NCBI GenBank assembly: GCA_002633005.1
Contig: NMRA01001030.1
Coordinates: 20,818-67,712 of the forward strand
Reading direction: 5' to 3'
Length of the DNA stretch: 46,895 bases
DNA from: Phoronis australis
Taxonomy: Eukaryota > Animalia > Phoronida
Within the stretch, counting starts at the first letter, position 1. Each line of letters starts with the position of its first letter. A program made the translations under genes and the position numbers. The notes below the pieces were generated by a model. That model was not told the DNA's origin. It saw only the letters and a program-made list of their open reading frames with translations, and did no database searches. Of the stretch, positions 11,901-41,100 are shown in pieces.

Positions 11901-14900
11901 CACAGGGCCGTACACAGGGCCGTACACAGGGCCGTACACAGGGCCGTACACAGGGCTGTACACAGGGCTGTACACAGGGCTGTACACAGGGCTGTACACA
12001 GGGCTGTACACAGGGCTGTACACAGGGCTGTACACAGGGCTGTACACAGGGCTGTACACAGAGCTGTACACAGGGCTGTAGACAGACCACATACATATGT
12101 GGGTTCATAAACATAGATTGGCACGTACAACACATGGACTAACCAGAACCATGAACTACACTTGAGGCTAGTGATATGTGACAGCAAATGGTCTGTCTCT
12201 TGAAATGTAAATGAGATCGCCAGTGAAAGATCAGAAGCAGACAACCCTGCCAATACTGCTGACCTTCGACAATCTTTTGAACTGTATGTAGGTAACAAAA
12301 GATCTTGCCAATACTATTTTGACAACTAACACTCTTCTGAACCATTTCCCTAAATGACCTCACTCTGGAGGTGGAAATCATTTTATGTTACAGTAGTGGT
12401 GTAGAAATGTCTAAGGCACAATTTCACTTAACATGACTAACTGATCGATAGAAAAATACCAATTTATAGGCGACTGGCAGAAAATAACACATTTATGTAG
12501 TGGTGTAGAGCTAACTGAAGTGTCAACTTCATAGGAAACTCTTGAAAATTGCTTTTAGTTCACGGGTTGTTGGGCCACATCCAGTGTTTTGTTTCTGACA
12601 AATTTGACTGTAATAACGAAACATTGCATGTGGCAATGGAATGTTACTGATCTCCGATTTCTGACTCTTGACGTCTGCACTTATGAGGGACCTAACCACT
12701 TCTAGCTTGCCTGGACAAGTCGGTTGAATCAAAAATTTGTAGCCTGAGCTGTAGCAAAATGAGGCGCTAATAGTGTAAAATTTGTCAAACTTGTCACCTT
12801 TAAGATTGCTTCTGCTGCCATCCTGACTACAGGCCAGGCCTGTGGTTGTACTCTGCAGTGTCGCCATGGCAACTATCTTTCTCTTGTGGTTGCACAGATT
12901 TGTCAAGTCCTCGTTACATCTGACCTCGTCCAGTGACCATGACTTTGACTGTACAGATGGGTCAAAGTTGAAGACGCGGTCCACAACGAGTGGACATTCC
13001 AGACCACATTTGCATGTACCTTCTGTCTGTAGGTACTGACGTACCTGGGTACCAGATACAAGCCGTGTCCCACTTGGACTGCAATAGAAACACAGTTACG
13101 TTATCGAACAGTGCATACACAGTTACGTTATCGAACAGTGCATACACACATATCCAGTTGAACACAACCAAAATTTTTCAATTTTGTCTACAACAATTTT
13201 CGGGAGCATGTCATTAACTAGAAGGAGCCAAGAAGTATATAGAGAAATTCAGGTGCTTGCTGTTAGCTGGTTGGATGTATAGAACATGTCTTGTTGCCTT
13301 GAACTATGAAAGTAGGACCTAACCACCCCGACTGCCACAAAACACAAATGTTCCTCTTCTAAAACTACATGTCTGTTGGTCCTTATGTTATCCCCAAAGG
13401 TTTCAGCTTTGCAGTATTTACAATTTTCCACACATTTGTGTAAACTGAAATGTTAAATTTAAGATTGCACAGTATTTGCACCATGTAACACTGTCTACAA
13501 TCATCAGACATTGTAATACATTGTAATACATTGTAATACATTGTAATACATACAAACAATTATTGTGTCCCAACATAACTAGAGCACCTTCAAACAAGTT
13601 CATTTTGCTGTCTACAAAAAATTGTCAAATTTTTTGAAATACCTCGACAATGTACTGGGGCTGTTAAATCCTTAGTGCTTAAACTGTTAACAGAACTTTA
13701 TTGAAAATGTTGATAAAAACAGATGATCATTTAGCAGGAACAAAAATGGATCAAATTGCAATTAAGTATTAATATTTGTTTCTGCAACAAATGTAGAAGG
13801 AATGAATGGGAATGTGGGACACTATACACTGTTGTGAGGATGTGCGACAATATACACTGTTGTGAAAAAATTCAAAACATTATTCAGGTAAAACCCTTCA
13901 TTATTATACCATCAAAGAGGGTTCTGTGCAAACATTGTTTAATTCACTTTATTAGAGTGTTACTGATGCTGGCATAAATAGTTAAGATCTAGTTTTGAAA
14001 GTTATTTTCCCCTATGGACGTTTACTATTAACTGATGAAAATTTGTCTTCAATGGCTTTGCCTTCATAAGCCAAGCAGTAATACATCGCACGTGGACGCT
14101 AAAAGCGTAGATAGGCTGATGACTCAGCTATATGACAACAGGTGGTCTTGTGCTCTTGTGCAAACGAATGATGGATGTAACAATAAGTGACTCATTATTG
14201 TTCAATTTAAAGTTGATACTTGCTTATTTGTGAAAACATGAAATAGAAATGTCATAAAAAGTAGTGCAGCAAAAAATATCCCAAAAATTCCCCTCTAAGT
14301 AAAAAACAACATGAGAATTTCCATTTTAGTTCAAAAATGCAGCAAAAATTCCCGCATTAGAAGGCACAGGCACCTGGAGGGCGCTGGATAAGATTTCCAA
14401 ACATGGTACACCGTCATGCTCAAAGACATGTAAGGAGACCATTGGAGAGACTAGTCTTGCTCCAGAAGGTAAAAGTTATCCCCATTAGACCCACTCAGTT
14501 CCACTGGTTTCTACACTAATCTCTCCGACAGTTGTTCAGGTTTAATCCCCTTCATATGATCATTTCTTCAACTGATAACGGGCAACATTCCCAGGAACCA
14601 CAAATTTGCCAAAACGACGCAATTTGGTAATATGAACGGAGCCTGAAGAACATTGAGAAATCAAGACAAAAAACAGACAATAACATCCCTACTTTGCACC
14701 TGCACTAAATCACGCAATTATTCTCAATAATCCATTACCTGTAATAAATCACAGAATTATCCTCAATAATCCTCTGCCAACCAAAAGGCACCGTGGCAAA
14801 GGGCGGGCTGTTCACCATGGCAACGGGTTGGCTGTTCATGTTCGCCATGGCAACGGGTTGGCTGTTCATGTTCACAGTGCCAAAGGGTAGGCTGTTCATG

Positions 14901-18287: not shown

Positions 18288-18326
18288 ATGGCGCTAGCAT
18301 GTCAAAAGAATTCCTATCTGAAAGAG
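18288..18326 (+). CDS. AARSD1: AARSD1 exon 1 (MALACQKNSYLKE)
   Basis: ATG in gacATGG context; GAG|GTATGA donor; resembles the AARSD1 N-terminus. Confidence 0.85.
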
Positions 18327-21300
18327 GTATGATTAGCGGTGTATATGGTTTTCTAGTGGAATGTTGTAGTTGCACACAAAGTCATGCATATTTAACGAAT
18401 AGTTAACAATACCGAGAAGCGTTTTCCTTTTGTTAGACGCGAGTGACTTATTAACGGTGTTGGAAAAATTGGCATTGTGCTTTGAGTGTGATCTTTTGCG
18501 TCGGCTTTCGCGCGTCACCTATTGGCCAGTTTCTTTTCCCACGATTACATCAACTGTTCTTCTCTTCCACGAGGTTGCGTACATGTCACAACATATTATC
18601 GGAACTGGTTTCATTTTTTTAAAGTTTTTATTATTTTAATACCAGCAAACCGAATTTCAGAACAAATTTTGCTGCTGCCTTAGCCTTACTTAGTTGTCAT
18701 CGCAGCGCTGGAGTTGCAGGTTGCTTTGCGACCTCAGGTTGTGTTTGGCGACCTGGGAAAAATCCAAATCGCCACGAGGCCGCCACTGCAAGTATCAAAG
18801 TCAGACAATATTTCTCTCTAAATTCGTTTCAAAGTTTGTGTTCACTTCCAAATTTTACTAATATTGTTCCTAGATTTATTTACCTTTGATTCACTTAATT
18901 GTTCCATTTATTTTGTGAATGGAATGCATTTGACACCATGTTGAAATCACAGGCGTCCTCACCTTGTGATCGTCCCCACTCTACATAATACTACAAGGTA
19001 TGACACTTAGGACTATAGAAATTCTATGGATGCTTCACAATTCAGATGTCCATAGCAATTAACCAAACAGAGGTTCACCAAACCATGAGGAATTTTTCTT
19101 TCTCCCAATGCCATTTACGGTGTCCTGCTCCACCGAGTTCACAAGAAATTTGCGGTCAAAGCACAAAAATCTTAATTCCTAAAAAGGTCGTCTGGAGCAA
19201 CTCCTTGGTCTCAGGCGCAGGGTACGGAATTATCCGATGAGTTACGGATGTTGACTGACTCGTAAACAAAAGCAAACGACAACCAAACTTATCACAACCG
19301 ATGACTGACTCGACAGCTCTCATAGTCAGACTATATGAAAAGAAATTGGCGCGAAATTCTTGCCTCCCGAAACGTCACTTCCGGAGTAGAGAATGAATAA
19401 TTAATTAAATTAAGAAAAGCTGTAATTAAGTTAATATGTCTGGGATAACCAACGAACCTTATTTTTGCTAAAAATGACATGAAAAAAGGTTGCCTTCACC
19501 TTTAAGGGTCATTATGAAAACTGGCATGTGTTCCTACCATGTCTCCTTAACCCATTGCAAGAGCTTTTTGAAATTTGACAAGTGTTTTCAATTGGATCAG
19601 ACCATTGCTGTACTTCGTAGCGACAATTTTAGTAGTTTACCTCTGTATCCAGTATTCTTTGACATATTTTCAGGAAAATTTACATGATTGGTTTCTATTC
19701 AGATGGATTCATCATATTCTGCACCACCTAGTGGCCATTTTCATAACTCTTTCCTAGACAATTTTAAAGGCCACTTCACCTGGACTCAACCTCAGCAAAA
19801 TTTCTCATATGATTTTCCTGTCGAGGACTGACCGTCAAAATAAAAAAGGCAACTTTCAATTTTATTGTTTACAGTTCAGGTCAAAGGTCGTCTCCTGTGA
19901 ACCAGCATCCATTAAACAAGTTTCCAATGGTAAGAAGGCCACACTGAATGGGTTTAATGTCATCTTGGAAGATACCATTCTATTCCCGGAGGGGGGTGGG
20001 CAACCTGACGACAGGGGAAAGGTAATTGTGTGTTTGAATTTACAATTTCACTCTTGTGACTTGATGAAATAAAATTTCTTGAAGTATGTTGCATTGTCAT
20101 AAAATTTGTTCGATTTGTTTTGTTTTTGTTTGTTTTTTGTTCTAGTGCTACAGATCGCAATTCTTATCATATCAATGCGAAGTTTACTCTCAACATGTCT
20201 TTCGTGAATGGCTCGAAGCCTATTTTTTGTATGAAATTCTTATAAAAGATGGCNCCACCGAGTTCGCAAGAAATTTGCGGTCAAAGTACAAAAATCTGCC
20301 CAAAAAGGTCGTCTGGAGCAACTCCTTGGTCTCAGGCGCAGGGTACGGAATTATCCGATGACTGACTCGTAAACAAAAGCAAACGACAACCAAACTTATC
20401 ACAACCGAGGTATATCAATGACCGACTCGACAGCTCTCATAGTCAGACTATATGAAAAGAAATTGGCACAAAATTCTTACCTTTCGAAACGTCACTTCCG
20501 GAGTAGAGAACAAATAATTAATTAAATGAAGAAAAGCTGTAATTAAGTTAATATGTCTGGGATAACCAACGAACCTTATTTTTGCTAAAAATGACATGAA
20601 AAAGGTTGCCTTCACCTTTAAGGGTCATTATGAAAACTGGCATGTTCCTACCATGTCTCCTTAACTCATTGCAAGAGCTTTTTGAAATTTGACAAGTGTT
20701 TTCAATTGGATCAGACCACTGCTGTACTTGGTAACGACAATTTTAGTAGTTTACCTCTGTATCCAGTGTTCTTTGACAGATTTTCAGGAAAATTTGCATG
20801 ATTGGTTTCTATTCAGATGGATTCGTCATATTCTGCACCACCTAGTGGCCGTTTTCATAACTCTTTCCTAGACAATTTTAAAGGCCACTTCACCTGGACT
20901 CAACCTCAACAAAATTTCTTATATGATTTTCCTGTCGAGGACTGACTGTCAAAATAAAAAAGGCAACATTCAATTTTATTGTTTACAGTTCAGGTCAAAG
21001 GTCGTCTCCTGTGAACCAGCATCCATTAAACAAGTTTCCAATGGTAAGAAGGCCACACTGAATGGGTTTAATGTCATCTTGGAAGATACCATTCTATTCC
21101 CGGAGGGGGGTGGGCAACCTGACGACAGGGGAAAGGTAATTGTGTGTTTGAATTTACAATTTCACTCTTGTGACTTGATGAAATAAAATTTCTTGAAGTA
21201 TGTTGCATTGTCATAAAATTTGTTCGATTTGTTTTGTTTTTGTTTGTTTTTTGTTCTAGTGCTACAGATCGCAATTCTTATCATATCAATGCGAAGTTTA

Positions 21301-24300
21301 CTCTCAACATGTCTTTCGTGAATGGCTCGAAGCCTATTTTTTGTATGAAATTCTTATAAAAGATGGCACTGTGACAGCTATTTTCTCCTTTTTTGTTTGC
21401 GAACTCGCAACCATAGCTCAGCTTTTTCTGGTGGGATTTTATTTTTCTGATTTTTCTTTCTGTGGATATATCATTCAAATGTCTCATTTGGTGTTCTGTA
21501 GTTCTTGCCATTCTCGAGTGAATAGAGTTTGTCTGCGAACTGGTCTCCAAATAACTGAGTTTTAGTGCCGTATCTTCGGGGTCCCTTGATGGATATATTT
21601 GAAATTTGGTATGTGGAGAGATCTTTTCAATTACAATCATCATTGTGAAGTCCTGTTTCTTGCTACGACTTACCGTTCTTGCGGTATTGTCACGTTTTTC
21701 CCCGTGTGTGGTTGTGCGCAGGTGTTTACCAACCGGTGCTGATAGCTTTCGGTGTGACGAAAGACTAAAGACTTGTTCTAGTTAATTACTTTATTAACCT
21801 CGATCGAATGTTCACAAGCCTACTCAAACAAAACGTTATTGAATCTTGCTGTAACTGGTGATTTCTCTTAACTACAACTCATCTGTAATTCTCTCAACTG
21901 TTTAACTGTTAACTGCTTTACTGACTAATACAAACCCGTGCTTGTGTATTTATAGATTAATGCAATGTTCTAGAACTTTTCACTAATTAAAGCACTTTCT
22001 AGAACTTTCCGGAATCTACCCAATCATTCTACAAACATGTCCTAGTCTCTAGAATATTCTAGACTGCATTAATCACTGTCATGCTAGAGTCTTCTAGAAA
22101 GTTCCACACTATACAGTATACAAATCACACCATCACTGTTGTGAACTGAGGGGTCATGCCAATCAAACAGTTCAACTAAACAAAACATGATGAGCCTCTG
22201 TTTGTGTGAACAGTTTCAGTGTTCTTGTGTTCCTCAAGTGTTCCTGGCTCTTGGTAGCCCAATACATGCGAGGTAACAACCCTTTCAAGGAAGACTAAGT
22301 AATAGGGATACTACAGTTGACATTTAGAAAGAGCAGATGTGTTGATGGTACAGAATAAGTGTATTAAACACATGGAGGTATTCTTGCACTCAATGACCTT
22401 CAAACCAGCTCTCCACTCACTGTCAAGTTTCATTCAATAATAGACAATGTCTTGATGATGTCGTGTCTGAAGTGAGAAATTGAGTTTTGCAAAAATGTTA
22501 CCCCTGACACCTACTGGGAAATAAAAGTGTGAGCACCATCTATTGGCAAGGCAGTGAGTTATGTTCCAATACCATCATGTCTGTATCTCTTCTTAGTTAA
22601 GATATCCCGTCCATGGCAGTTCAGTATTTTGATTGTCATTTTCTCAATTTTCTATGTTTTGAATATCAGATAAATGGAATAGATGTTCTGAGAGTGGAGA
22701 AGTGTGGTCAAGATGTCCGCCACTTTGTGCCGAGCCCATTAGATGCAGACACTGATGTTGACATCAAGCTGGATTGGTTGAGAAGATTTGATCACATGCA
22801 ACAACACTCAGGTAATGCCATCTGTTCACTGTGCATACAAAGTGCATCTGTTGACATGCATACAAACTACCATCCGTTGACATGCATATAAAGTGCCATC
22901 TGATGGTGTGCATACAACGGTCAGGTAGTGCCATCTGTTGACAGTGCATACAAATTACCATCTGTTGATGTGCATACAACACGCAGGTAATGCCATCTGT
23001 TGACAATGCATATAAAGTGCCATCTGGTGACGTGCATACAATAGTCAGGTAGTGCCATCTGTTGAGAGTACATACAAACTTTTGATTTATGATGTATTTT
23101 GCAACAAGTTTGTATCAGATGTACTTCCAAAAGTTATAATAAGATTTACTGAAAAACATAACCTAAATTATGGTTGATTTCAAGAAGGACTGCAAACCTG
23201 AGAATGAGAAATCTTACTTCTATCCTAAAAGAGTTCTAAGCAGAGATAGATATTGATATTTGAGGATTACTAAAAGTAATATTTTTTTTTTTTNNNNNNN
23301 NNNNNNNNNNNNNNNNNNNNNNNNNNNNNNNNNNNNNNNNNNNNNNNNNNNNNNNNNNNTGGATTACCTGTCTGTCATTACTGATGCAAATTGTTATTTA
23401 GTGGGACTCGGACTGGAAATCTGTAGTTGTCTTGGCCTGATAAGAACTGGAAAGCAAGGAACTCCACTTACTTTCAATTGTCATACATGTCCTGCAGGTT
23501 TGAGGTTGACTTTTTCATTGATTTTATTTTATATAGAAATCAATTGAAAAGGTTTTAAAAATCTTTTGTAAAGTAGGTCAAATTGACAAAAATGGCCTCC
23601 AAAAATGTAACATTTCCCCTTTTATTTAACTTTTTAGAATAAAAACTTGGTACCAAGTACTGATTGTAATGTATGACTATTTTCAGGTCAGCATCTGATC
23701 ACTGCTGTCATCAATGAAAAATATGGATATGATACAACGTCATGGTAGGTGTTTGAACACAAAATTGTTTTAACATTTAGTGATATTTGGTCCACTGAAC
23801 TGGAGGTATGGACCACTGAACTGGAGGTATGGACCACTGAACTGGAGGTATGCACTACTTAATTCGAAACATGCACCACTGAACTGGAGGCATGCACCAC
23901 TGAACTGGAGGCATGCACCACTGAACTGGAAGCATGCACCTCTGAACTGGAGGCATGCACCACTGAACTGGAGGCATGCACTACTGAACTGGAGACATGC
24001 ACCACTGAACTGGAGTTATGGACCACCAAACTGGAGGCATGCACCACTGAACTGGAGGCATGCACCACTGAACTGGAGGCATACACCACTGAACTGGAGG
24101 CATGCACCTATGAACTGGAAGCATGCACCTCTGAACTGGAGGCATGCACCACTGAACTGGAGGCATGCACCACTGAACTGGAGACATGGACCACCGAAAT
24201 GGCAGTTGGGGGTTCCTCTTTGTACTTTTGGCACCAATTCAATACATTCCTTCCAAAACTTACCGTATTCGCCGTAATAACCGCGTAGGGCGCTTAGAAA

Positions 24301-27300
24301 AGTTCGTTTCAGGGGGGCGCTTATTATAACCCAAGGCCGGTCTCCAAAACGGGTGAAATCGGAAGCTAAGATTCATCATATTTAAGCCTTGTGACGTATC
24401 TGTAATCAATGAAAGACTTCTACAAAACCGTGGTGCATTGCTATCAAACTTTGCTGCTAATAGACTACGATCGTTTTACAGAAAATTGTGCTGAAATCCC
24501 AGGGCGAAAACTTGCCAAATGACTGCCTAGCAATCGTCGATATGGCGACTTGAATGCTGGAATAAAATACAGTTTCGACTCTAGCAAATTACCTGAAATC
24601 TTCCTTAAGTTTTCCAAGTAGCGTCCCTAAGATTTTTAAGTTCCCGTGGGGTCGGAATTAATGACAGGTTTAAGTACAAATCGTGCCATCTACCTGTATG
24701 ATCGTCAACATGAGAAAAATGTCTGGACGAACTCACATGTTGTCGTCACGTGACGTTTGTTTTGAAGTTCGTCTGCGTTTGTGAGTAAGCGAGCGCGTGT
24801 GTGTCACCAGATTTCATTTGCCAGAGCAGAGACCGTCTTTTGGCCAGAGCCATGCAATCTAACGAGCTAGCTAGATGTGCATAGTATCTAAAGAAATTTG
24901 CACAAGCTGTAGGCCTAAACCAGAGCGTGTTTCATTCAGCACTTGCCGGTCTCATGTGCTAAAAATGTTCGACATTTGTTTTGGTAAGGCCCATATTAGT
25001 CGCCGTGTGGCTGGATGCGTACGTTACTATCTGACATTTATTTTTCGATGTAAGGGTGTGTAAGCATTCACTGTCAATCGTCATTTTATCGGATATTTGG
25101 CTTAAAAACACCAATTATGGTTAATCAAACAATTCATCTTAAAAGTAACGCAAACATTTTTATGCACCCACATATTTATATGTGGACGCATTATGCCGTC
25201 ATCTCTGTCCGTCCGGGCAGCGTCCGTCTGGCGTCCGGCGTCTGCTGCTCTATCTCCAAAACGATTGACGTATGTTCATGAAATTTTGCACATATGTTCC
25301 TTTCATGGATGGTACGGCATGAGCGAACTTTTGGACGGATCTGACTACCGATGTGCCCCCTAGTGGCAATTTTAGCTTTTTACGTTTACCTCTGTATCTT
25401 CAAAGGTCCTCGACATATTTTCACAAAATTTGGTATATAGGCACATATTAGTGAGACGATGGTATCCTCCCATTTTCGGATGGATTCACCTTGTGGCCAT
25501 TTTTACTTTTTTTGAGTCTGTTTTTTAGCGTTCGCCCCTCTTTCAAGCAAACCGCTGTAAGCATGATTGCGAAAATTGGCATGTATGTTCTTACTATAAA
25601 GAGGACGGTTGATGATGATTTTCTGACGACTTCGACTATTGTGGCGCCTCCTAGTGGCAGTCTTGTTTTTTTTGCGTATTACAACGCTCCGCGTTGCTCT
25701 TGTTTATAGTATTAGAAACTGTCGGAAATTAGTGCCAATATTCATTTCTTGCCGATGCTATGCTACTCATTTCATGAATGGATAGTTCCCGACTAATGTC
25801 TTTGATGACAGGTTCATGTATGTAGAGCGCGCTTCCTGGCCACATGCTTTTAACACTGGCCAAGCTGTTTAGTAGTCTTCGATTCGCGGTTTTCACGTGT
25901 ACAAAGAAATTTGGATTCCTGTTGAAACCGGGAAACATCTACAAAGCAATCCCGTAGACAAGTACACTACGTCTGTTCTGAAAGGCCACTGGCAGACCAT
26001 TGGTCCTCGCAAGATCAGCAAAACTTTTGTTTTCGTTTTGAGGCATGGCGAAAGTTTGAAGTGTATAGTCACGGCTAAATACCGACATAGCGGCGAGGAT
26101 CGTGGTCTACAAATTCTGCGCACAATGATTTTTTTCAGGACTGTTGGATATTATTGATTAATTGATGACGTTATTGTAGAATTTTAGGCATTTTCCCTCA
26201 TACATGTTCATGGACTGGGCACTTATTTTTGCTAAGTCTGAAAACGCGTGGGGGGGGCGCTTATAGGGGCATGGGCGGTTATTACGGCGAATACGGTAAC
26301 ATACAAACTCTTCATAGTTACAAGTTTTCAAATCTAGTATAATGCTGTTGTTGTACTATGATCATGCCCTCATTTGGTGAGCAGTCGTTGTTATTGGTGA
26401 CAATGGTTGAGTCCAGTTTCAGGGGTGTTGTTATGGAAAGGTCTGTCTTACTTGGTATTGTATAGGTGTGTCACTTTTCTTCTCAAGCAGGAAGGTTTCA
26501 ACTCCAGTCCCAAGTTTCTCTGCGTTTGTGAAACCCATACAGTTTGTGTATCTGCTGTATGGTGGTCTTTGAATACAAGTAAGCTTAGAGACCTCAGTGA
26601 CACATTGCGGTATAGCAAACAGCAGCATTGACAGAAACTATCAAATATTATGTTTAGGAATTCTGAATTCCTGTAGGATTTCAATTTTCTTCAGTTCTAG
26701 AGAATACTGGGATTTATGCTATAGAAACAATATGAAATGATACTTCTAGTTTTCCTAGAAAACTTTCAATTGAAGTACTGTTGTACTTTTTGGCAGACAT
26801 AGGTAGGCTCGTCACTACAGTTATTTTCCATTGCAGGTGGCTTGGTGAAAAGACATCATTCATAGAGTTGGATGCCCCCACCCTGACACTGGAGGAGATG
26901 CGGTACATTGAGGACACTACCAATGACAAAATTAGAGCTGGCATCGGGGTCACGGTAAAGCTGTATGATGATAAAAATGACCCCCGCTTGAGTGAGGTAA
27001 ATTAACTCTCCCCCNNNNNNNNNNNNNNNNNNNNNNNNNNNNNNNNNNNNNNNNNNNNNNNNNNNNNNNNNNNNNNNNNNNNNNNNNNNNNNNNNNNNNN
27101 NNNNNNNNNNNNNNNNNNNNNNNNNNNNNNNNNNNNNNNNNNNNNNNNNNNNNNNNNNNNNNNNNNNNNNNNNNNNNNNNNNNNNNNNNNNNNNNNNNNN
27201 NNNNNNNNNNNNNNNNNNNNNNNNNNNNNNNNNNNNNNNNNNNNNNNNNNNNNNNNNNNNNNNNNNNNNNNNNNNNNNNNNNNNNNNNNNNNNNNNNNNN

Positions 27301-28050
27301 NNNNNNNNNNNNNNNNNNNNNNNNNNNNNNNNNNNNNNNNNNNNNNNNNNNNNNNNNNNNNNNNNNNNNNNNNNNNNNNNNNNNNNNNNNNNNNNNNNNN
27401 NNNNNNNNNNNNNNNNNNNNNNNNNNNNNNNNNNNNNNNNNNNNNNNNNNNNNNNNNNNNNNNNNNNNNNNNNNNNNNNNNNNNNNNNNNNNNNNNNNNN
27501 NNNNNNNNNNNNNNNNNNNNNNNNNNNNNNNNNNNNNNNNNNNNNNNNNNNNNNNNNNNNNNNNNNNNNNNNNNNNNNNNNNNNNNNNNNNNNNNNNNNN
27601 NNNNNNNNNNNNNNNNNNNNNNNNNNNNNNNNNNNNNNNNNNNNNNNNNNNNNNNNNNNNNNNNNNNNNNNNNNNNNNNNNNNNNNNNNNNGCCAACCTA
27701 TAGGATTGTCCTAACCTGTGTCTGGGAGTGATGTCGGCAGCTAGTTGCATATTTATTAGTCTAAAGAAGTGTCACACTGTTGCCAGTGAATGAACGGAAT
27801 ACTACTTTAGGTGTTACACTGAACACTTAAAGTACTTTAGGTGTTATACTGAACACTTAAAGTACTTTAGGTGTTATACTGAACACTTAAAGTACTTAAG
27901 GTGTTATACTGAACACTTAAAGTTGGACAAAAATCCGAGAATATTTATGTTTAAAGTTTCACCCTGTTTATGGCTTTTACTCTCACTCATAAAATCAGTC
28001 TCGTAATAGTCCTTACTATGATAGGATTGTCTGTATGTCTGTGTGTGTGT

Positions 28051-28086
<36 letters not shown>

Positions 28087-31000
28087 TATCAACAAGAATG
28101 CTGAAACCACGAGCGTCTCAAGATATTGCTTTAGACTTAACTGGGAATGACCAAACCTAAAATTCCAAAGTCAAAAATGCTGCATGTACTCTTTGCCCAT
28201 GGCTTAAATTGGTAACGGGAGTAGAATCCAATGGTTGTAAGGAATATTATGAAATGATTTGGCACAAAATTCAGCTTAGAGTAATTGACGGTAAAATTTC
28301 ACCAATGTTAGACAAAAAATTAGCAAAATGCCATTTTTTCATATTTCAAAGGTTTGTATGCCCACAGTTTTTTAGCACTTTGTTTGATGATACAAAACAG
28401 GAAAAGGGTTAAATATTTAATTTGATAAATATTTAATTTGATGCTGCTGAAAAATAAAACTTTCACTAGGCAGCCATATTGTGTCTTAAATTGTCAAAAA
28501 GTTTACAGTAGTTATGGCCAGTGTGTTCACAGTAGTTATGGTCAGTTTGTTCATTGTAGTTATGGTCAGTTTGTTCATTGTAGTTATGGTCAGTTTGTTC
28601 ATTGTAGTTATGGTCAGTTTGTTCATAGTAGTGACGGTTAGTGTGTTCACAGTTGTTATGGTCATTGGTCAGTGTTTTTACTTAGCTTCAAAATGTCGTC
28701 TGCTTGCCTCTAGGCAAGGACACGTGGTCTCCCTGATGATCTTGAGGGATCGGTTCGCATTGTGACTATTGATGGTATTGAAGATGACCTCTGCTGTGGA
28801 ACGCATGTATCAAATACAAGTCATCTACAGGTAGAGATGTTGTGAGCAGATAAACCTGTAGGTGGCACTAGTGTTGCAATGGTCCTACAGCAGTGTTCAA
28901 AATAAAGTGGTCGGACAATTTTGAACTTTGTTTTGACAACACTTAGTGTGGCTAAAGGCTACTTTCCGTCAACAAGCGTCCGTTTCAGTTCTGACACAGT
29001 TTTGTCAAAATTTACCTTTCGAACTGAACACTATTAGCTTGGTGCAATTATCACAAATTGATATCCATTTTAAGATCGACAAGAATGTAAGCAGACAGAC
29101 ATTTTGTGTCCTTGCTAAATTCCCGTGGCATAAAATTCCAAAGTCTGACCAGTTCATTTTGAAAACTACAGTAATGTTTTATTAACTGTCAGATTCAATA
29201 TGAAATGCTTGCCTCTAGGCTAGGACACGTGGCCTTCCTGATGATGTAGACGGATCAATACGCATTGTTACTATAGACGGCATGGAGGATAACATGTGTT
29301 GTGGAACACACGTTTCCAGTCTAAGTCATCTACAGGTGAACACAGGTTATACCTTTCTGAAATTCAGTAGCACCAGTGGTAATGATTGTCTCCCCTGTAA
29401 ATACATGCTGTCGGAAAATCATGTGTTACCCTGACTTGGTCAACAGATTTTTGAAATTATTCAGATAGTAAAGGTAGAACCTCTAATACACTAGTGCCAT
29501 CTAGTGGACACGGAGTGTTTCACTACTAGCAACTGACTTTCTGTCTCTGCTCTACAATTTCTTGTGTCAGCACTGCAACACACAACATACGTAGAACTTG
29601 TATTAACGAATGAAAATGTTACAAAATTACACTTTGACCTGGAATACTTGTTAACTAGGCTGTAGGAGTGTCGGACCCATGCAGCAATACTCCCATATTT
29701 GCCTGATTCTAAATGTAAATAGATTTTAAACTGCTGCAGTTTTACAAAAGACAATTGAGGATCCTGTGCAAACATGGCCAACAGTGTTCATATTTCAATG
29801 ATGTGCCTCGTAATATATATATAGCTCTCAAGTGTGATGTTCTTTGTTGTTGTTTCTGACCAATGATCTAGATACAGATCTAGTTCATTGTTCTAACTGT
29901 TTGTGTTCCTCCATTACACTCCAGGCTGTCAAGCTGCTGAGTGTCGAGAAAGGGAAGAAAAACAAATGTAATCTGGTGTTCCTGGTTGGTAACCGTGTCT
30001 TGGACTACCTACAGCAGTGTTGTGACAGGGAGAGGGCGCTCACTGCTCTACTCAAGTATGTTATTACAGTCTGATAGTATTGTGACCAGGAGATTGCACT
30101 CACTGCTTTACTTAAGTGACGTAAACTCGCTGGTTAACCCCTTGGCCCTTAAATTGGGAAACCCTGAGACAGGGGGTGGGCGATTATTCAAGCAGTGGGC
30201 GCTTAAGGTGAACATTTCGCAAAAAGTCTGATGTGGGCAATTACCCAAGTAGTGGCCACTTACGTCCAAGTTTTAGCCGAACTGGGCAAGCTCGCTGGTT
30301 GTTCATTCGAGCATGGAACTTGTAAGTTTGGTCAAACAGCAGGACCAGACAACCACAAAATTTCTCACGGCTCAAACAGAAACAGGATTTTGACTTTGAA
30401 AGGTGATTTTGCAAGAACGTTGTTAAAAAGTCCAATGTTTTCAAATATGTTAGCGTGCTTCTAAATGTCACTCCACGGAGCTTTATGAAACTTAAATGGC
30501 CCTTACCGTATTAGCAAGCACTGTTTCAGATCAGTGAATGGGACTACATATCGTTTCCAGCGCCGTTGTATTGTTAGTGTTGTTTGTATGACTGTTTTTA
30601 TTTGGAACCCTTCCGGTCCCATCTCGTTCTTGTTAATGTCATCTGCGTATTAAACCCGATAAATTTTCGATTCACTATTTCATTTACCTGTCGCTGGTTT
30701 AAAAACACGGACTATTTGTTCCTGACCGACACAAACCGTTTGCAATTACAATGAGAGGGNTTGACCCAGGAAATCACGTGATCTATGCGTTTAATTACAA
30801 CGAGAGGGGGGATAGATTAATTGGTCATTTCAAATATGAGTAAAAATTCTAGCAAAGTCAAGTGCTCCGTCTAAAAATACATGGCGATGCTTCGAAGTTT
30901 TACCTGTTCTCGCCAAACACTCAAAAAATTTGATTTACTGAACTCGAAAAAGCACCAGAAATAATGTCTGATACGAACAAATTTAGACTACTAGGTAATT

Positions 31001-34000
31001 CAAAAACTTGTAACGTAGACAACCTACGCTGTTGACGTCCAGGACGTCGTACTGTACGTGTAATCTCGTAGTAGACTAGCTTCACTTCTATAAAAATCTA
31101 CGGAGTAGCTGACCTAAATTAATTTAACAAAAGATCATTTGATAAGTTTAAAAAAGGTGATTGTGCGCTTGAGTTATTCCATAAACGCCGGCTGAAAAAC
31201 ATACTGTTCGAGACAATCGTATGCAGGTGTAAGCATGCCGTGTTTCGGCAAACATGGAAGTCGAAGCTCGAAGCAAAGCTGTGAACAAAAGCATGAGTTT
31301 AAGCGCAAGTTCTGTAAGCGGTAAGTTGGGGATGGGCGATTAACGGAGAGGTGAACGCTTGCGTGGAAATTAACACAAAGTAGGGGATGGACGATTACCC
31401 ACACAGTGGGCGCTTAAACTGAAAATTGACCAAGTCAGGGAGGGGCGATTACACAGGCATGGGGTTAACCCACAAGTTTACGGTATGTTATCACAGTTTC
31501 ATAGTATTGTGACCAAGAGAGGGTGCTCACTGCTCTACTTAAGTATGTTATTACAGTCTCGTAGTGTTGTGACCAAGAGAGGGCACTCATTGCTCTACTC
31601 AAATATGTTATCACAGTCTCATAGTATTGTGACCAGGAGGGGGCACTCACTGCTCTACTCAAGTATGTTATCACAGTCTCATAGTATTGTGACCAGGAGG
31701 GGGCGCTCACTTTTTTGCTCAAGTATGTTAGCACAGTCTCTTAGTTCTTCTTCTTCAAATAGTGTGTCAAGGGACCGGAACATCTTTATTTAGGAAATGA
31801 GTTGTAACATATTTGCTTTTCATTTTTTTCTGAGTAGTATTATCTGGAAACTTATATGATGCTGAATCACAGTAAAGTGAGGTGAGAAGTTTTTGAAAAT
31901 GTTATAGTGTTGAGTCACATCTCTGTGTAGTCTATTACTGTTGTGAAGAGTCCAATCATATGTAAAGAAGGAATCATACACACATTTAGTTCTGATGTTC
32001 ACTTTGTTTCTTTTAGGCCAGTAAAGCCAACAAGATCTCGTAAAGAAATGCAATATTTACTTGACTAGTGTGCTTATAGAGCTCACCCTTTTTTACCGGC
32101 ATGACTTGTTCACATTTCAGAAATCAGCCTGAAGATCATCCTATGTTGGTGGAGAAAATGCAAAAGTCGTTCCAAGTCAGTCGAAAGGTATGACACTAAA
32201 CGGAACATGCTTAATTATCCCAATATTGATCAAGCTAAGAAGATAGCACTCCCATTTAGGCTTAGACAATATTGCTTAAGCTCAGACAGTATTGTGCAAG
32301 CTTGGACAATATTGCACAAACTCTTGATAATATTGCACAAGCTTGGTCAATATTGATATATCTTGGTCAGTATTGTTCAATATTGTACAAGCTTGGATAA
32401 TATTGCACAAGCCTTTGACAGCACACTCAGTTTGTGTGTTTGATTGACAGAGATATGTATTATGAACTCTAGGCACAGCACACTACGTCTGTGCATTGAT
32501 GGACACAATTACCATATTGCCTTGTCATTAGGCCCGTGGGTGTCTGTGCGAAACTGCGCTAATATGCGAAACATAGGCGTCTGTGCAGAACTGTGAGAAT
32601 TTGCTAACCACTTGGCTAAAAAGGCCTTATTTCGGATACAGGCCCATGGGCCTAAAGGGGCGACAATATCATGGTGTCTATTATGAACTCTGAGCCCACA
32701 CTAAGTTTGCCCATTCTAAAAATTCATTCATATTTGAAATGTATGCACCTTCAGCTGAGAATGTTTTGCCCATAATGCCTTTCAAGGTCTGACACTAAGG
32801 TCACTATGTACTCCTTTCATTTCACTTTCAGGCATGCTCACAACTGCTTCGTGACGTCGCTGTGTTTGAAGCACAAAAGTTTAAGGCTAATGGAGTTAGC
32901 CGCCTGTTATGTCTACACAGAAAGGAGGGAGATAATGAGTTTATGAATATTATTGTTAATGAAGTTAATGACCCTGTAAGTGCACTTAGAGGTTTGAAAC
33001 TGATCAAATTTGTTTTACATTTATTTGAAGATTTTTTTACATTTATTTGAAGATTTTTTAATTATTTTTACTAATAGTTAAAATTTTCAGTTTGGGCAGT
33101 CCCTAAAATTTTGGAGATCAAATTTCAAGCCAAATTGAACTTTTTGGGATCTTAACATTGGGACATTGGTGATTTTGGCTTCAACATATATGTTTTAGCC
33201 CATGTTCATTTAAGTATTTACTGTTCATCTTGAGATAATGTCCTGAGTAGTGAGACAGTCTACTGACTTGCATTTAGTACATTCAACCAATCTGAATTGT
33301 GTGGTATGATAACTCAGGGGTTAGGTGTTGTTCATTTCCAGAATGTGATACTCTTCTTGTCGGTGGGAGAAGAAAATGGTGCAGGGAACTTTATTCTTGC
33401 CTCAAATCAAGAAGTGATCGATAAAGTTGGCAGCAGGTATGGGTTTTGTGTTGTTCTCTGTAAGTCAGACCAGTTGTGGCATAAAAGTACAACTAATGCA
33501 CATTTTAGGTGTCCCTTGTAGGCATGTCGTCTTGGGTAACTCCACCGATATGATGTGGTTGTTAGTTATTAACGTTTATCTGATCATATGACTCTCCTAA
33601 CCAATCCAGAACTTTTATATGCAACTTCGCTAATTATGACTTTGCGGAGGGTGGAATTATTTGTCATGATGGTACTTTAACACCTCTGAAGTAACCTTGG
33701 TGACAAAGCACAGGATCAGCTTGACCTTCGTATCTTAATGGAAGACATTGGTGGAACAGTTGTCATTGATTATGAGGATTTTGCCACATCAACTCATACT
33801 TCCTTTAGGAACTCTGCTACTCAGATAAAAATTAAGTTGAATTTCATAAATAATTAGAAATTGTTTGTTATTAAATTGGCTGAGAAGTACTCTCCTTCAT
33901 GTGTCTTCCGCTAATGATCATAAAATATGAGTAAACGCGAAATGCTGAGGTGTTCTTTTGTTTGATTTTCTTGCAGAGTGGCTGAGCTTCTGGAGGGGAA

Positions 34001-34103
34001 AGGAGCTGGCAAGAAAGGGAAGTATCAGGGAAAGGCTAATAAACTGAGTAACAGGAAGAAGGTGGAACAGTTATTACGAGAGTATCTAGACCAAGAGTCG
34101 TAA
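18288..34103 (+). CDS. AARSD1: Alanyl-tRNA editing protein AARSD1/AlaX, spliced gene; 11 exons, 408 aa using one copy each of exon 2 and exon 6
   Basis: Motifs LEDTILFPEGGGQPDDRG, RRFDHMQQHSGQHL (HxxxH), CCGTHV (CxxxH), LHRKEGDNEFMNII, LEGKGAGKKGKYQGKA. All introns GT-AG with matching phases; exon lengths sum to 1227 nt. Confidence 0.95.
19875..20021 (+). CDS. AARSD1: AARSD1 exon 2, copy A (redundant assembly copy)
   Basis: tttacag acceptor; FRSKVVSCEP...FPEGGGQPDDRGK; AAG|GTAAT donor; identical to copy B. Confidence 0.8.
20989..21135 (+). CDS. AARSD1: AARSD1 exon 2, copy B
   Basis: Same 147-nt exon on the other side of the single N at 20254. Confidence 0.8.
21753..22129 (-). mobile_element. 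Solo-LTR-like element with heat-shock-element cluster
   Basis: TGTGA...TCACA termini; on the minus strand an HSE cluster, then TATAAATA (21954-21947), then AATAAA (21795-21790), in U3-R-U5 order; no TSD, PBS or PPT seen. Confidence 0.6.
22670..22811 (+). CDS. AARSD1: AARSD1 exon 3 (HxxxH zinc motif)
   Basis: INGIDVLRVEK...LDWLRRFDHMQQHS; atcag acceptor; G|GTAAT donor. Confidence 0.92.
22792..23078. repeat. ~31/62-bp degenerate repeat derived from the AARSD1 exon-3 donor region
   Basis: Recurring tgcatacaa...caggta(a/g)tgccatctgtt. Confidence 0.8.
23294..23359. other. Assembly gap (N run)
   Basis: Run of N. Confidence 0.99.
23687..23744 (+). CDS. AARSD1: AARSD1 exon 4
   Basis: ttttcag acceptor; (G)QHLITAVINEKYGYDTTS(W); TG|GTAGG donor. 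Confidence 0.9.
23788..24195. repeat. 21-bp minisatellite (ccactgaactggaggcatgca)
   Basis: About 19 copies. Confidence 0.95.
24263..26296. mobile_element. Non-autonomous Tc1/mariner-pogo-type DNA transposon in AARSD1 intron 4
   Basis: Perfect 22-bp TIR CCGTATTCGCCGTAATAACCGC at both ends, flanked by TA on each side; no transposase ORF. Confidence 0.85.
25157..25788 (+). mobile_element. Nested DINE/Helentron-like non-autonomous element
   Basis: Begins in a T-run, followed by a hairpin (ccacatat-tt-atatgtgg) and a GTCC-type microsatellite, with an internal duplicated core (cctagtggca); right boundary approximate. Confidence 0.5.
26837..26996 (+). CDS. AARSD1: AARSD1 exon 5
   Basis: ttgcag acceptor; WLGEKTSFIELDAP...DPRLSE; GAG|GTAAA donor. 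Confidence 0.9.
27015..27691. other. Assembly gap (N run) in AARSD1 intron 5
   Basis: Run of N. Confidence 0.99.
27802..27922. repeat. 30-bp tandem repeat x4
   Basis: tactttaggtgttatactgaacacttaaag. Confidence 0.9.
28028..28085. repeat. (GT)n/(CTGC)n compound microsatellite, probably inside a DINE-like element
   Basis: Direct inspection; preceded by ataggattgtc, which also occurs near 27700. Confidence 0.8.
28505..28665. repeat. 24-bp minisatellite (gtagttatggtcagtttgttcatt)
   Basis: About 6.5 copies ending about 50 bp before exon 6a. Confidence 0.9.
28714..28830 (+). CDS. AARSD1: AARSD1 exon 6a (CxxxH motif, DLCCGTH variant)
   Basis: tgcttgcctctag acceptor; ARTRGLPDDLEGSVRIVTIDGIEDDLCCGTHVSNTSHLQ; CAG|GTAGA donor; 117 nt, phase 0-0. 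Confidence 0.85.
28891..29168. mobile_element. Small hAT-like MITE between AARSD1 exons 6a and 6b
   Basis: Imperfect ~26-bp TIR cagtgttcaaaataaagtggtcggac vs tagttttcaaaatgaactggtcagac; no clean TSD. Confidence 0.55.
29219..29335 (+). CDS. AARSD1: AARSD1 exon 6b (CxxxH motif, NMCCGTH variant)
   Basis: tgcttgcctctag acceptor; ARTRGLPDDVDGSIRIVTIDGMEDNMCCGTHVSSLSHLQ; CAG|GTGAA donor; 117 nt, phase 0-0. Confidence 0.88.
29925..30055 (+). CDS. AARSD1: AARSD1 exon 7
   Basis: ctccag acceptor; AVKLLSVEKGKKNKCNLVFLVGNRVL...ALTALL(K); AA|GTATGT donor. Confidence 0.92.
30119..31483. mobile_element. Non-autonomous pogo-type DNA transposon inserted in a 60-bp minisatellite (AARSD1 intron 7)
   Basis: Imperfect TIR cgtaaactcgctggttaacccc vs cgtaaacttgtgggttaacccc; inserted at the TA of aagTAtgtta (left TA now TG); shares gggcgctta subterminal motifs with the 24263 element. 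Confidence 0.75.
31484..31740. repeat. 60-bp minisatellite derived from AARSD1 exon-7 end plus donor (continues 30020-30118)
   Basis: tgtgaccaggagggggcactcactgctctactcaa|gtatgttatcacagtctcatagtat units on both sides of the 30119-31483 transposon. Confidence 0.9.
32121..32187 (+). CDS. AARSD1: AARSD1 exon 8
   Basis: atttcag acceptor; NQPEDHPMLVEKMQKSFQVSRK; AAG|GTATG donor; phases fit the neighbours. Confidence 0.85.
32258..32414. repeat. ~20-bp degenerate repeat (caatattgcacaagcttgga)
   Basis: About 7 copies. Confidence 0.75.
32832..32975 (+). CDS. AARSD1: AARSD1 exon 9
   Basis: ctttcag acceptor; ACSQLLRDVAVFEA...LHRKEGDNEFMNIIVNEVNDP; GTAAGT donor. Confidence 0.9.
33342..33436 (+). CDS. 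AARSD1: AARSD1 exon 10
   Basis: tttccag acceptor; NVILFLSVGEENGAGNFILAS...VGS(R); AG|GTATG donor. Confidence 0.9.
33977..34103 (+). CDS. AARSD1: AARSD1 exon 11 (last), poly(A) signal AATAAA at 34128-34133
   Basis: ttcttgcag acceptor; VAELLEGKGAGKKGKYQGKANKLSNRKKVEQLLREYLDQES then TAA. Confidence 0.92.
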
Positions 34104-38100: not shown

Positions 38101-41100
38101 AAGACCAGAGCAGAATGACTGAGCGTCGTACCAACTTTCATACTTGTTATCGAACTTCACAATGCACTCTTTCCTCTCCTTTGCCCAGTTCACGCAACTA
38201 GGCCTACTTTGGGTTGTCACTACATGAGAACGACAATTTCGCTTATAATGACGTCGCCATACGCGAATGTGAGAGAACGACGTCATACTGTCGTTTGATA
38301 TCATATGTCAAACGACAATATCTTATTGTCATTAAATGTGAATGTTATTTCTGTTATTTTTTCAAGCTCAGTCTAGCTCCGGATTACTTAACAATTCTGG
38401 TCTGCTTGTGACGTGTTTTAAAACAATTTACAAATCAGAAAGAGAGTGCCTTTCACTTTCCTATTTTCAAATTTAGTTTGCAGCTAAGTATTTCATCTCA
38501 AACTCTCTTGTTATAACCACTTTATGTGAAATTAATCTGAAGAACGAACTCATACGCACTAAAACATTTCCTGACATTTCGAACATTCCTTGTTACTGGT
38601 CAGTTCTCACCTGGTACCTGGCAAGCCACACGTTGTTTTCCGTAACAAAGTTTGGCACTGAGTCGATAAGGATCTCCGGCAGATACTGCTAGACACAGGC
38701 GCTTCCTAGCAGAAGCGTAGCGTTCTCTCCTTGGCCAGATGTCGATATCATAATGATTGAACGTATCACCTGTCGTCACAGAAAAGAGATTCACAACACA
38801 AAATTAACCCTTGCTTACAGAGAACTGGTAAAAGGTGAAAAATATTTTGCAATTGAACTCTGGCTCTTCAAGAAGCTGAGTAGTTTGTTAAATTTATATG
38901 AGCTATTAGTCTGACATAGCGATGAGTCTACCACTAAGTATATACATGTAGCTTGGTGAAGAGTCCTATAGCTGAAGATGACGTAGTAAAGGCACGCACC
39001 ATTTACCCATTTCCACTCCTTATTGTAAGAAGACACTGCCCTTAGTCCGATCCATGCATTCCGTGCTGTGCCAGCGATCTGTTGTACCTTGTCAATACTT
39101 TCCCTGACTCGTAGTTCTGCCAGTTGACCTCCTTGTCCCAGCGTCTTGCAGAACTTGTTGGCGTCATCCCACGTCTTACGGCAACCGCCAAAATAGGTGT
39201 AACGCAACCTCGCTCCAAAATCGATGTCTTTCTCGAAGCAAGTGTTCACTGTAGCAGATTAACGCAGTTGACAAAGACAATAAAGTGAAAAAAGTAGGCC
39301 TATAGGCCTTCGCTGTTGCAACCAAGAATGTGTCCGGAACTGCGCTCCCACAAAAATGCTCCCGTGGGTCTATTTTCAGGAGAAAACAAAGCTTACCATT
39401 ATGGCCGTTTCATACTGGTTTACTGAAGCTATACTGTCGTCAATGCCAGAAAATGAATCAACTCAATGGACGAATTACTGGGTGCAATTTAATTTTTGTC
39501 TTTCAAAATGACTTAAAAGGACATTGAGATTCAAGCACTGCACGCTGTGCAGGCCTTAGTTGACGGAACGGCCCAAACTATCTAGCTGTGAAACTGCTGA
39601 ATTGTAACAAATTGGGTCAGCATTGCCTGCCCAAAATTGGCACAATTTAATACCTAAGTATTGCATTTATCAATTGGCGGAAATTTTCAGTTCTGGTTAT
39701 TTACTAATGTTGTGATATGTCTACTGGCGGTTAATGAAACGCTCCAAAAATCACATCGGAACTAGAAAGAGCTCAGTGTCGACCTGTGTGTAAGTTGACT
39801 AATAACGTACGGGACAGATATCCAGTGAGTGCCCAGATGATTCATGGAAGTGACAGGGAGGCCGGGTCTCAAGCATAACGAACAGCGAGTCCGGCCGTAA
39901 AAGCACTCGCCCAAGGGTATGAAGTGACAAAGGGTTTTTAAATGAATAGATTTCTGCGCGCTGAAATGTGCTTAATCAACGCGATCAAGTATAAGAATCT
40001 GCAACATTCTTCAAACGTTGCCTTGCACCCATCAGTGTAGAAAGTCTTCCGTCGCGGCAAATGTGCGCGTTGAAGAGTAGAGCGGTGATCGTTTGCGAAC
40101 TAATTCAGTGCGTTGATAAAGCAAAACTACGAGTAGATTAAGCACATTTCAACACGCAGAAAGGTACTCGTTTTTAAACGCTTCCCAGGTATGAAGCGCC
40201 AAAGGGTTCTTAAAGGAACCGTTTGGCGCTTCATACCTGGGTAGCGCCGTTCCGCAGACTTGTGTGTAGACTCCGTGTCTATCGAGAAAAGCAAATTCTC
40301 GCAAAAGAACGTGATTGTTTCCAAGTAGGCTTAGAACATTATGTTAAAGTCCAGTGCGCACTCGACTTCGAACAAGTCGAAAATACATGAATACACGACA
40401 TCTCTATTTGGAAAATCACATGAGTTGATTAGCATGATAGTTAATTGCCGTCAATGAGCTATATTTATCTCATTGGTTGCTGTTACTTTTGCATTTAGAC
40501 TGTAGAGGATACGAAAACGCCGTCTGTTTGTTGTTGTTATTCTGTGTCCTCTAAGCCGAGGTACAAAGACATCTGAATCGATCAGACAGAGTGCTGCTCA
40601 CTACGAAATAACACCATCGCAGCTGGGGGAAGAGCTAATAAATGTGTTGCTGTTACAGAGAGGGTATAACGTGGTACGGTGGAATTAAAAGTAAAAGAGA
40701 ATTTGATATGAGGGGACCATTCTGTACCCCTTTTGGGAGGCCCAGCCTTCGTTGTGAAATTTCTCGGCTTAGTTTTATGATCAATCATGCGTTATCATAG
40801 TTACCGCTGTAGTCTCCAAGCAGTGACACAGGGAGCTTACCGGCCTAGCCTATAACAATATGGAGGCCTGTAAAGTGATTGGTCGGCGAGGTTGCAACGT
40901 TGAATGGTGGGACTGAAGATTTTCGCCGCAAATGCAAATTATTGGGCACTACAAAACTTAACCCAGGACTCTGTGAATACGCAAACCCAGCTATTTCGAA
41001 AAAAATACCCGCTCGTGGCAGCCCGTGGGCGTTGTGGAGCAGTTTCCTTCTTGCCAAAGTACTCCGTTTTTTATCAGTGTAAAAATCAAGAAATTTCCAT

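Follow-up and report, generated by a model that had tools for sequence, protein, structure and literature searches.

Two tandem copies of one exon in the AARSD1/AlaX-L gene of Phoronis australis raise the question of whether the copies are used together or one at a time and, if the latter, what keeps them apart. Both lie in a 46,895-nucleotide stretch of contig NMRA01001030.1 (called the window here), for which a sequence-only reading had proposed that the two exons are mutually exclusive and give two enzymes from one gene. We follow that proposal with sequence comparisons, public RNA and DNA reads, and predictions of RNA pairing.

The duplicated exon and its history

The AARSD1/AlaX-L coding span extends from 18288 to 34103 on the plus strand, has 11 exon positions and encodes 408 amino acids with either copy. 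The joints 4>5, 5>6A/6B, 6A/6B>7, 7>8 and 8>9 of this model are supported by reads, and the remaining joints are taken from sequence alone. The open frame specifies a free-standing editing domain and C-Ala without an aminoacylation domain; six of its exon peptides match proteins named Aarsd1, and a Gly-rich C-terminal motif can be read by eye. Its HxxxH zinc motif is H104–H108, and the CxxxH motif is C209–H213 in both copies of the exon, which thus supplies the CxxxH half of the zinc site, as the sequence-only reading had stated. Human AARSD1/AlaX-L likewise has an editing domain plus C-Ala with HxxxH and CxxxH motifs, and its CxxxH cysteine, which bears the same number, C209, is required for editing (PMC11260482, sections consulted). 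The Pfam profile tRNA_SAD (PF07973, cut-off 24 bits) scores 33.5 bits with exon A and 24.7 bits with exon B. Elsewhere in the window, a large gene upstream of AARSD1 encodes on the minus strand (12952–13080) a Cys-rich peptide that has no Pfam hit at E 0.01 and by eye resembles an MBD5/6-type domain, and a downstream gene includes, also on the minus strand (39031–39252), a C-type lectin domain exon (PF00059, 26.6 bits).

The copies, exon 6A (28714–28830) and exon 6B (29219–29335), are both on the plus strand, as are all other AARSD1 features described below; they are called A and B here. Each encodes residues 183–221 and is identified by sequence and by junction reads. Each is 117 nt long, of phase 0-0, stop-free and followed by a GT donor, and each is preceded by the same 13-nt acceptor (28701–28713 for A, 29206–29218 for B), known from the sequence and from its use in RNA. 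They lie between a constitutive upstream exon (exon 5, 26837–26996, with an RNA depth of 17–25 reads at 26959–26982) that is joined to both, and a constitutive downstream exon (exon 7, 29925–30055) to which both are joined. A and B are identical at 91 of 117 nucleotides and 31 of 39 amino acids. Seventeen codons are identical, 14 differ only synonymously and eight change the amino acid (A has D207, L208 and T217 where B has N207, M208 and L217), and 19 of the 26 base differences are at third positions; the lengths, coordinates and codon count of the sequence-only reading are reproduced exactly.

Such a pair could be an assembly artefact, with two haplotypes set side by side, or one copy could be a dead pseudo-exon. 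Two N-joined, near-identical duplications do exist in this assembly. The exon 2 region is present twice (19241–20253 and 20255–21367; 985 of 1010 positions identical, the exon itself identical, with a one-N join), and this is probably two haplotypes placed side by side; a second such duplication (9285–10006 and 10008–10730; 706 of 713) lies in a long coding exon that the upstream gene has on the minus strand, and is likely the same artefact. In addition, broken partial copies of exon 6 are present in the related loci L002, L014 and L021 (described below). A and B, on the other hand, are merely 78% identical and have no N between them, and two error-free contigs from a DNA run span 28597–29178 (exon A and the intervening intron, depth 42.7) and 29240–29726 (most of exon B, depth 40.1). 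Because these contigs cover both copies at like depth, the tandem arrangement is genomic, and the contrast with exon 2 that had been drawn earlier stands. Together with the splicing of both A and B in three of three RNA runs, this refutes the artefact or pseudo-exon explanation, to which we give next to no credence. High-copy intron repeats at 29139–29173 and 30139–31560 attract foreign reads (DNA depth up to about 2500).

The flanking introns of A and B had been called unrelated. This holds for the upstream flanks, whose similarity is at background (412 of 889 control windows), but behind both donors there is a 10/12 match at exactly +32, and the local alignment score of the downstream flanks is reached by 34 of 828 control windows. 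The intron upstream of exon A contains a gap of 677 Ns (27015–27691), which could hide sequence.

A metagenome scan gave 58 related loci, about 40 of animal type, many of which are near-copies and so represent fewer independent lineages. The 117-nt phase 0-0 exon recurs in these loci and, as judged from sequence comparison, this zinc-site exon is ancient. It is single and intact in all 12 intron-containing loci in which both flanking exons are present. Remnants of a second copy, all of them broken, are found in one of these 12 (L021, 829–885) and in two shorter loci (L002, 611–727, and L014, 3202–3318), a pattern indicating that duplications of the AARSD1 zinc-site exon recur in other animals but are decayed there. 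At L031, L032, L036 and L039 the orthologous exon is followed by GC, not GT, which suggests that some relatives have GC-AG introns. A tree of 30 distinct exon sequences places A and B as sisters (99/97), and the two share the rare residues S195 and D206 (6% and 5%, respectively, of 184 distinct segments). Since A and B are sisters and the relatives have a single exon, the duplication is lineage-specific. In protein searches with each exon, 2 of 15 and 5 of 17 candidates passed, none of them a full-length protein of a close relative; such a blank carries little weight.

Tandem intron repeats of 60 and 62 nt (22801–23082, 29997–30116 and 31484–31783) are similar to the ends and donors of exons 7 and 3 of AARSD1. 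It seems that exon ends are readily duplicated locally at this gene, and the exon 6 pair may have arisen by this route. At the exon 7 acceptor, joints that go back 53–71 nt (29873–29944; 5–8 reads) occur in RNA runs X6 and X7, where the individuals sampled probably have a tandem duplication that spans this acceptor.

Comparison of A and B by the Nei-Gojobori method gives dS 1.17 and dN 0.115, a ratio of 0.098 (Fisher p = 1e-6) that is far from 1. The listed RNA-versus-assembly differences (three weaker table rows are left out) are synonymous in two of two cases in exon A and five of five in exon B, and in the upstream exon three of four change the residue. Since all seven differences in the exon copies are synonymous, each copy is under purifying selection, B more clearly than A; together with the low dN/dS between the copies this upholds the earlier view of an old duplication kept by selection. 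The last 12 exon bases are identical in A and B although dS is greater than 1, and 7 of 8 codons at the exon end are unchanged versus 10 of 23 inner codons.

Splicing of exons A and B

Three stranded RNA-seq runs of one study, all with the same species label, were analysed over positions 26311–30098, with 18–19% of each run covered. Joints were listed only at three or more reads per run, so up to about six reads each of an A>B, back-splice or skip-both joint could be hidden. Reads joining the upstream exon to A numbered 8, 7 and 7 in the three runs (22 in total) and those joining it to B 7, 7 and 5 (19); joints to the downstream exon had 9, 2 and 8 reads from A (19) and 15, 3 and 8 from B (26). 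No junction read in these runs fitted two places, and the informative junction reads, 86 in all, represent a low depth. The four either-or joints are thus present in each of the three runs, the only joints listed from the upstream exon are those to A and B, and no A>B, back-splice or skip-both joint is listed in any run at the three-read threshold. The A:B ratio is 41:45 overall (p = 0.75), which is about equal use, and it does not differ among the three runs (chi-square p = 0.72; tissues unspecified). The individuals behind the RNA reads, which are distinct from the assembly at fixed sites, use both exons. No joint is listed at the cryptic GT at 28842, and a further RNA contig run, X8, was uninformative (two pieces).

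If both exons were often included together, or if exclusivity were leaky, the double form might have been missed at this depth, given the three-read threshold in each run, the coverage of just 18–19% of each run, and the reads that run through donor A into the intron (six in X5 and two in X7). Independent inclusion, however, would be expected to give 14–23 A>B reads, against at most about six that could be hidden. The either-or alternatives moreover add up to roughly the constitutive level: they total 41 and 45 reads, compared with 46 and 58 at the adjacent constitutive joints (46 loose ends at exon 4>5, where reads from exon 5 extend 5' into the end of exon 4, and 58 joints at exon 7>8, 30055>32121, with 17, 16 and 25 reads per run). 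Double inclusion would also repeat two core strands and the zinc loop, according to the secondary structure of an orthologue model. We consider frequent or leaky double inclusion very unlikely, and conclude with high confidence that A and B are mutually exclusive, as had been inferred from the sequence.

Element R1 and its predicted partners

How might exclusivity be enforced? All four inclusion outcomes (A, B, both or neither) keep the frame, so nonsense-mediated decay cannot enforce it. Steric hindrance is argued against by the 388-nt intervening intron, whose AG-free zone is short (24 nt) and whose branch candidates are at –36 to –47 from acceptor B. Both introns are GT-AG, so spliceosome type is no explanation either.

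A candidate is provided by an intron element, R1 (28854–28874, 24–44 nt behind donor A), which by computation is complementary to three sites: the end of exon A and its GT (28820–28832), with which it would form a local 13-bp hairpin that covers the donor; the identical end of exon B and its GT (29325–29337), an alternative 13-bp partner; and D1 (29488–29503), a predicted 16-bp partner 153 nt behind exon B. The R1 helices were picked after being seen, and their controls are to be read with this in mind. The R1:donor helix (13 bp, –19.1 kcal/mol) is reached by 0 of 2000 shuffles, by 0 of 252 intron-sized windows, and by 2 of 1450 real windows, both of which are the exons' own reverse strands. 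Against R1 the best of the ten other AARSD1 donors reaches –5.9 kcal/mol, and the best of 26 orthologous exon ends –7.7 kcal/mol. The R1:D1 helix (16 bp, –25.7 kcal/mol; 0 of 100 shuffles, 3 of 119 real windows) uses the same 8 R1 bases as the donor helix. The complementarity of R1 to donor A, donor B and D1 is beyond chance.

We propose the following scheme. Tandem duplication of the ancient zinc-site exon gave two intact copies, spliced as alternatives about equally. Pairing of R1 with the end and GT of exon A would form a local hairpin that hides donor A and favours B, and pairing of R1 with D1 or with the end of exon B would loop out or hide B and so favour A. Because these partners overlap on R1, only one of the pairings can form, and such competition may help to prevent double inclusion. 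The outcome would be two predicted 408-residue AlaX forms that differ at eight positions. Taken as a whole, this reading (duplicated exons spliced as alternatives to give two AlaX forms, with competing RNA pairing likely helping exclusivity) seems to us probable; for the narrower claim, that an R1-based donor-masking switch operates, we take the chances to be about evenly balanced.

The main competing explanation accepts that exclusivity is real but ascribes it to splicing proteins, to the kinetics of exon definition or to an element concealed by the 677-N gap in the incomplete upstream intron, with the R1 complementarity as a by-product. Folding predictions, which give no clean switch, speak for it: equilibrium folding favours the donor-A hairpin over R1:D1 by 3.3–4.4 kcal/mol, although usage is about 1:1, and when R1:D1 is forced donor A is still mostly paired in the prediction (unpaired 0.12 versus 0.36). 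So do the five matches to the D1 motif in the window (0.82 expected), the lack of a both-exon relative in which to look for covariation, and the possibility that conservation of the exon ends reflects splicing or protein constraints alone. Nevertheless, the R1:donor helix stands well apart from all controls, the 26 orthologous exon ends among them, and the same eight bases enter a second, 16-bp helix. We give this explanation somewhat less than an even chance.

Several other observations concern the same elements. The 101-nt donor region folds moderately better than shuffles (z –2.18; 4 of 200). At donor A +5 (28835), in the predicted hairpin loop, the assembly has A and six of six reads of run X5 have T; no read differences are listed inside R1 or D1, where depth is 1–6 reads. 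The D1 motif may resemble a CTCF-type DNA motif. A weaker and doubtful candidate element, R2 (29087–29116), is by computation complementary either to the acceptor and start of exon A or to D2 (29506–29520), a 15-bp partner that adjoins D1 (1 of 252 controls). For the start of exon A, R2 is matched by 2 of 252 controls when scored by uninterrupted helix and by 113 of 234 with duplexfold, and a change at 28716 in all RNA reads would mismatch the R2 helix, with no compensating change listed. As an ATE1-like element for acceptor B, R2 was rejected, since 115 of 252 controls reach it. The single Rfam hit, to mir-5014, scores 31.6 bits where the gathering score is 101; it falls on a tandem repeat that is palindromic, and we put it down to chance.

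Mammalian ATE1 provides a precedent for RNA pairings that compete with each other and overlap splice sites (PMC7797038, in the parts consulted). Its exons 7a and 7b resemble the AARSD1 pair in being two homologous exons of the same length, in a tRNA-using enzyme, with little double inclusion, and in having one intervening-intron element whose complements are similar sequences that overlap splice sites of the two exons. The ATE1 elements, however, are upstream of the exons, are conserved in vertebrates and were proven by compensatory mutation (same parts of that source), whereas the AARSD1 pairing is computed only; in AARSD1 the best-supported pairing covers donors, and there is a third partner 153 nt behind exon B. 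In the downstream-docker clusters of mutually exclusive exons (14-3-3zeta, Mhc and MRP1), as is predicted for AARSD1, an element behind the first alternative exon pairs behind the last one (PMC6071210, as far as the consulted text goes). A degenerate copy of the R1 core, the 10/12 match mentioned above (29367–29378, +32 behind donor B), is at the offset expected of the one-arm duplication model of docker/selector exclusivity (same text). Unlike in those clusters, the second selector of AARSD1 is decayed (–13 versus –31 kcal/mol), and the partner that competes is the donor of the exon itself.

The two predicted enzyme forms

An AlphaFold model of the orthologue P0014 (mean pLDDT 92), which is not the Phoronis australis protein, was used to place the differences between A and B. 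Its nearest folds are AlaRS and AlaX, and in it the exon forms a lower-confidence loop, two strands, the zinc loop and a short helix. Placed by offset on this model, differences 192/193 belong to the loop, those at 196 and 204 are at the edges of strands, 207/208 are on the strand immediately preceding the cysteine, and 216/217 are where the helix begins. Exon B is nearer the family consensus around the zinc motif, since it keeps N207, M208 and L217. At position 207, which precedes the zinc cysteine by two residues, 260 of 303 homologues have N and 6 have D, and position 217 is L in 277 and T in 19 of the same 303; in prokaryotic relatives position 207 is N, Q or A. The counterparts of position 207 in E. 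coli are presumably ThrRS D180 and AlaRS E664, which are editing-pocket residues.

Because the differing residues flank zinc ligands, a kinetic difference between A and B is plausible. The two forms might even be specialised in substrate range, zinc binding or oxidation sensitivity, with a regulated ratio. Retention of both copies to dS >1 under purifying selection is consistent with this, as are the location of 207 beside the zinc cysteine, the rarity of D there (6 of 303) and the predominance of L at 217 (277 of 303). Several Ser-tRNAs, moreover, are edited by human AlaX, an enzyme that zinc inhibits (PMC11260482, sections consulted), and the homologous ThrRS cysteine is oxidant-sensitive (PMC4041444, in the part consulted). 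Against specialisation, D207 and T217 are each seen in other homologues (6 and 19 of 303), position 207 varies in prokaryotic relatives, the A:B ratio is flat over the three runs (p 0.72), and any copy that is used is selected simply for making half of the enzyme pool. We regard specialisation as rather unlikely; near-equivalence is likelier, and the two forms most likely edit in almost the same way, with kinetic differences that are modest at most. More ambitious still would be a pair of AlaX active sites whose editing chemistry differs (acidic D207 versus amide N207) and whose ratio is set by a three-way donor-masking RNA switch, a combination that we think improbable.

The sequence-only reading knew of no such exon pair in AARSD1, and a wider search likewise gave none. 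No second exon copy or isoform pair is present among 216 homologues of at least 250 amino acids, and no retrieved homologue has two CCGTH motifs in one protein. Among 382 homologue pairs with near-identical flanks, 67 differ at 3–5 of the 39 exon residues, but none is fully flank-identical, and judging from their identifiers these 67 look like cross-species mammalian orthologues. In the consulted sections of PMC11260482 no alternative exon copy was found for human AARSD1, where the Phoronis gene has a pair. We found no published AARSD1/AlaX exon pair, although supplements of catalogues of mutually exclusive exons could list one; a term search of the accessible part of PMC9013439 gave none. The architecture of mutually exclusive, tandemly duplicated exons is itself already familiar; the AARSD1 case is supported by RNA and was not found in print.

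This gene offers a natural paired comparison. A single AlaX editing pocket occurs in two variants, each expressed and under selection, while the rest of the protein is the same, which makes the effect of the residues flanking CxxxH on substrate range and on zinc or oxidant sensitivity directly testable. It is also a compact, 1.2-kb candidate for exclusivity achieved through hidden splice donors, in which frame, intron length and spliceosome type offer no explanation. If the improbable combination of D207/N207 chemistry and an RNA switch were true, translational proofreading would be tunable by splicing.
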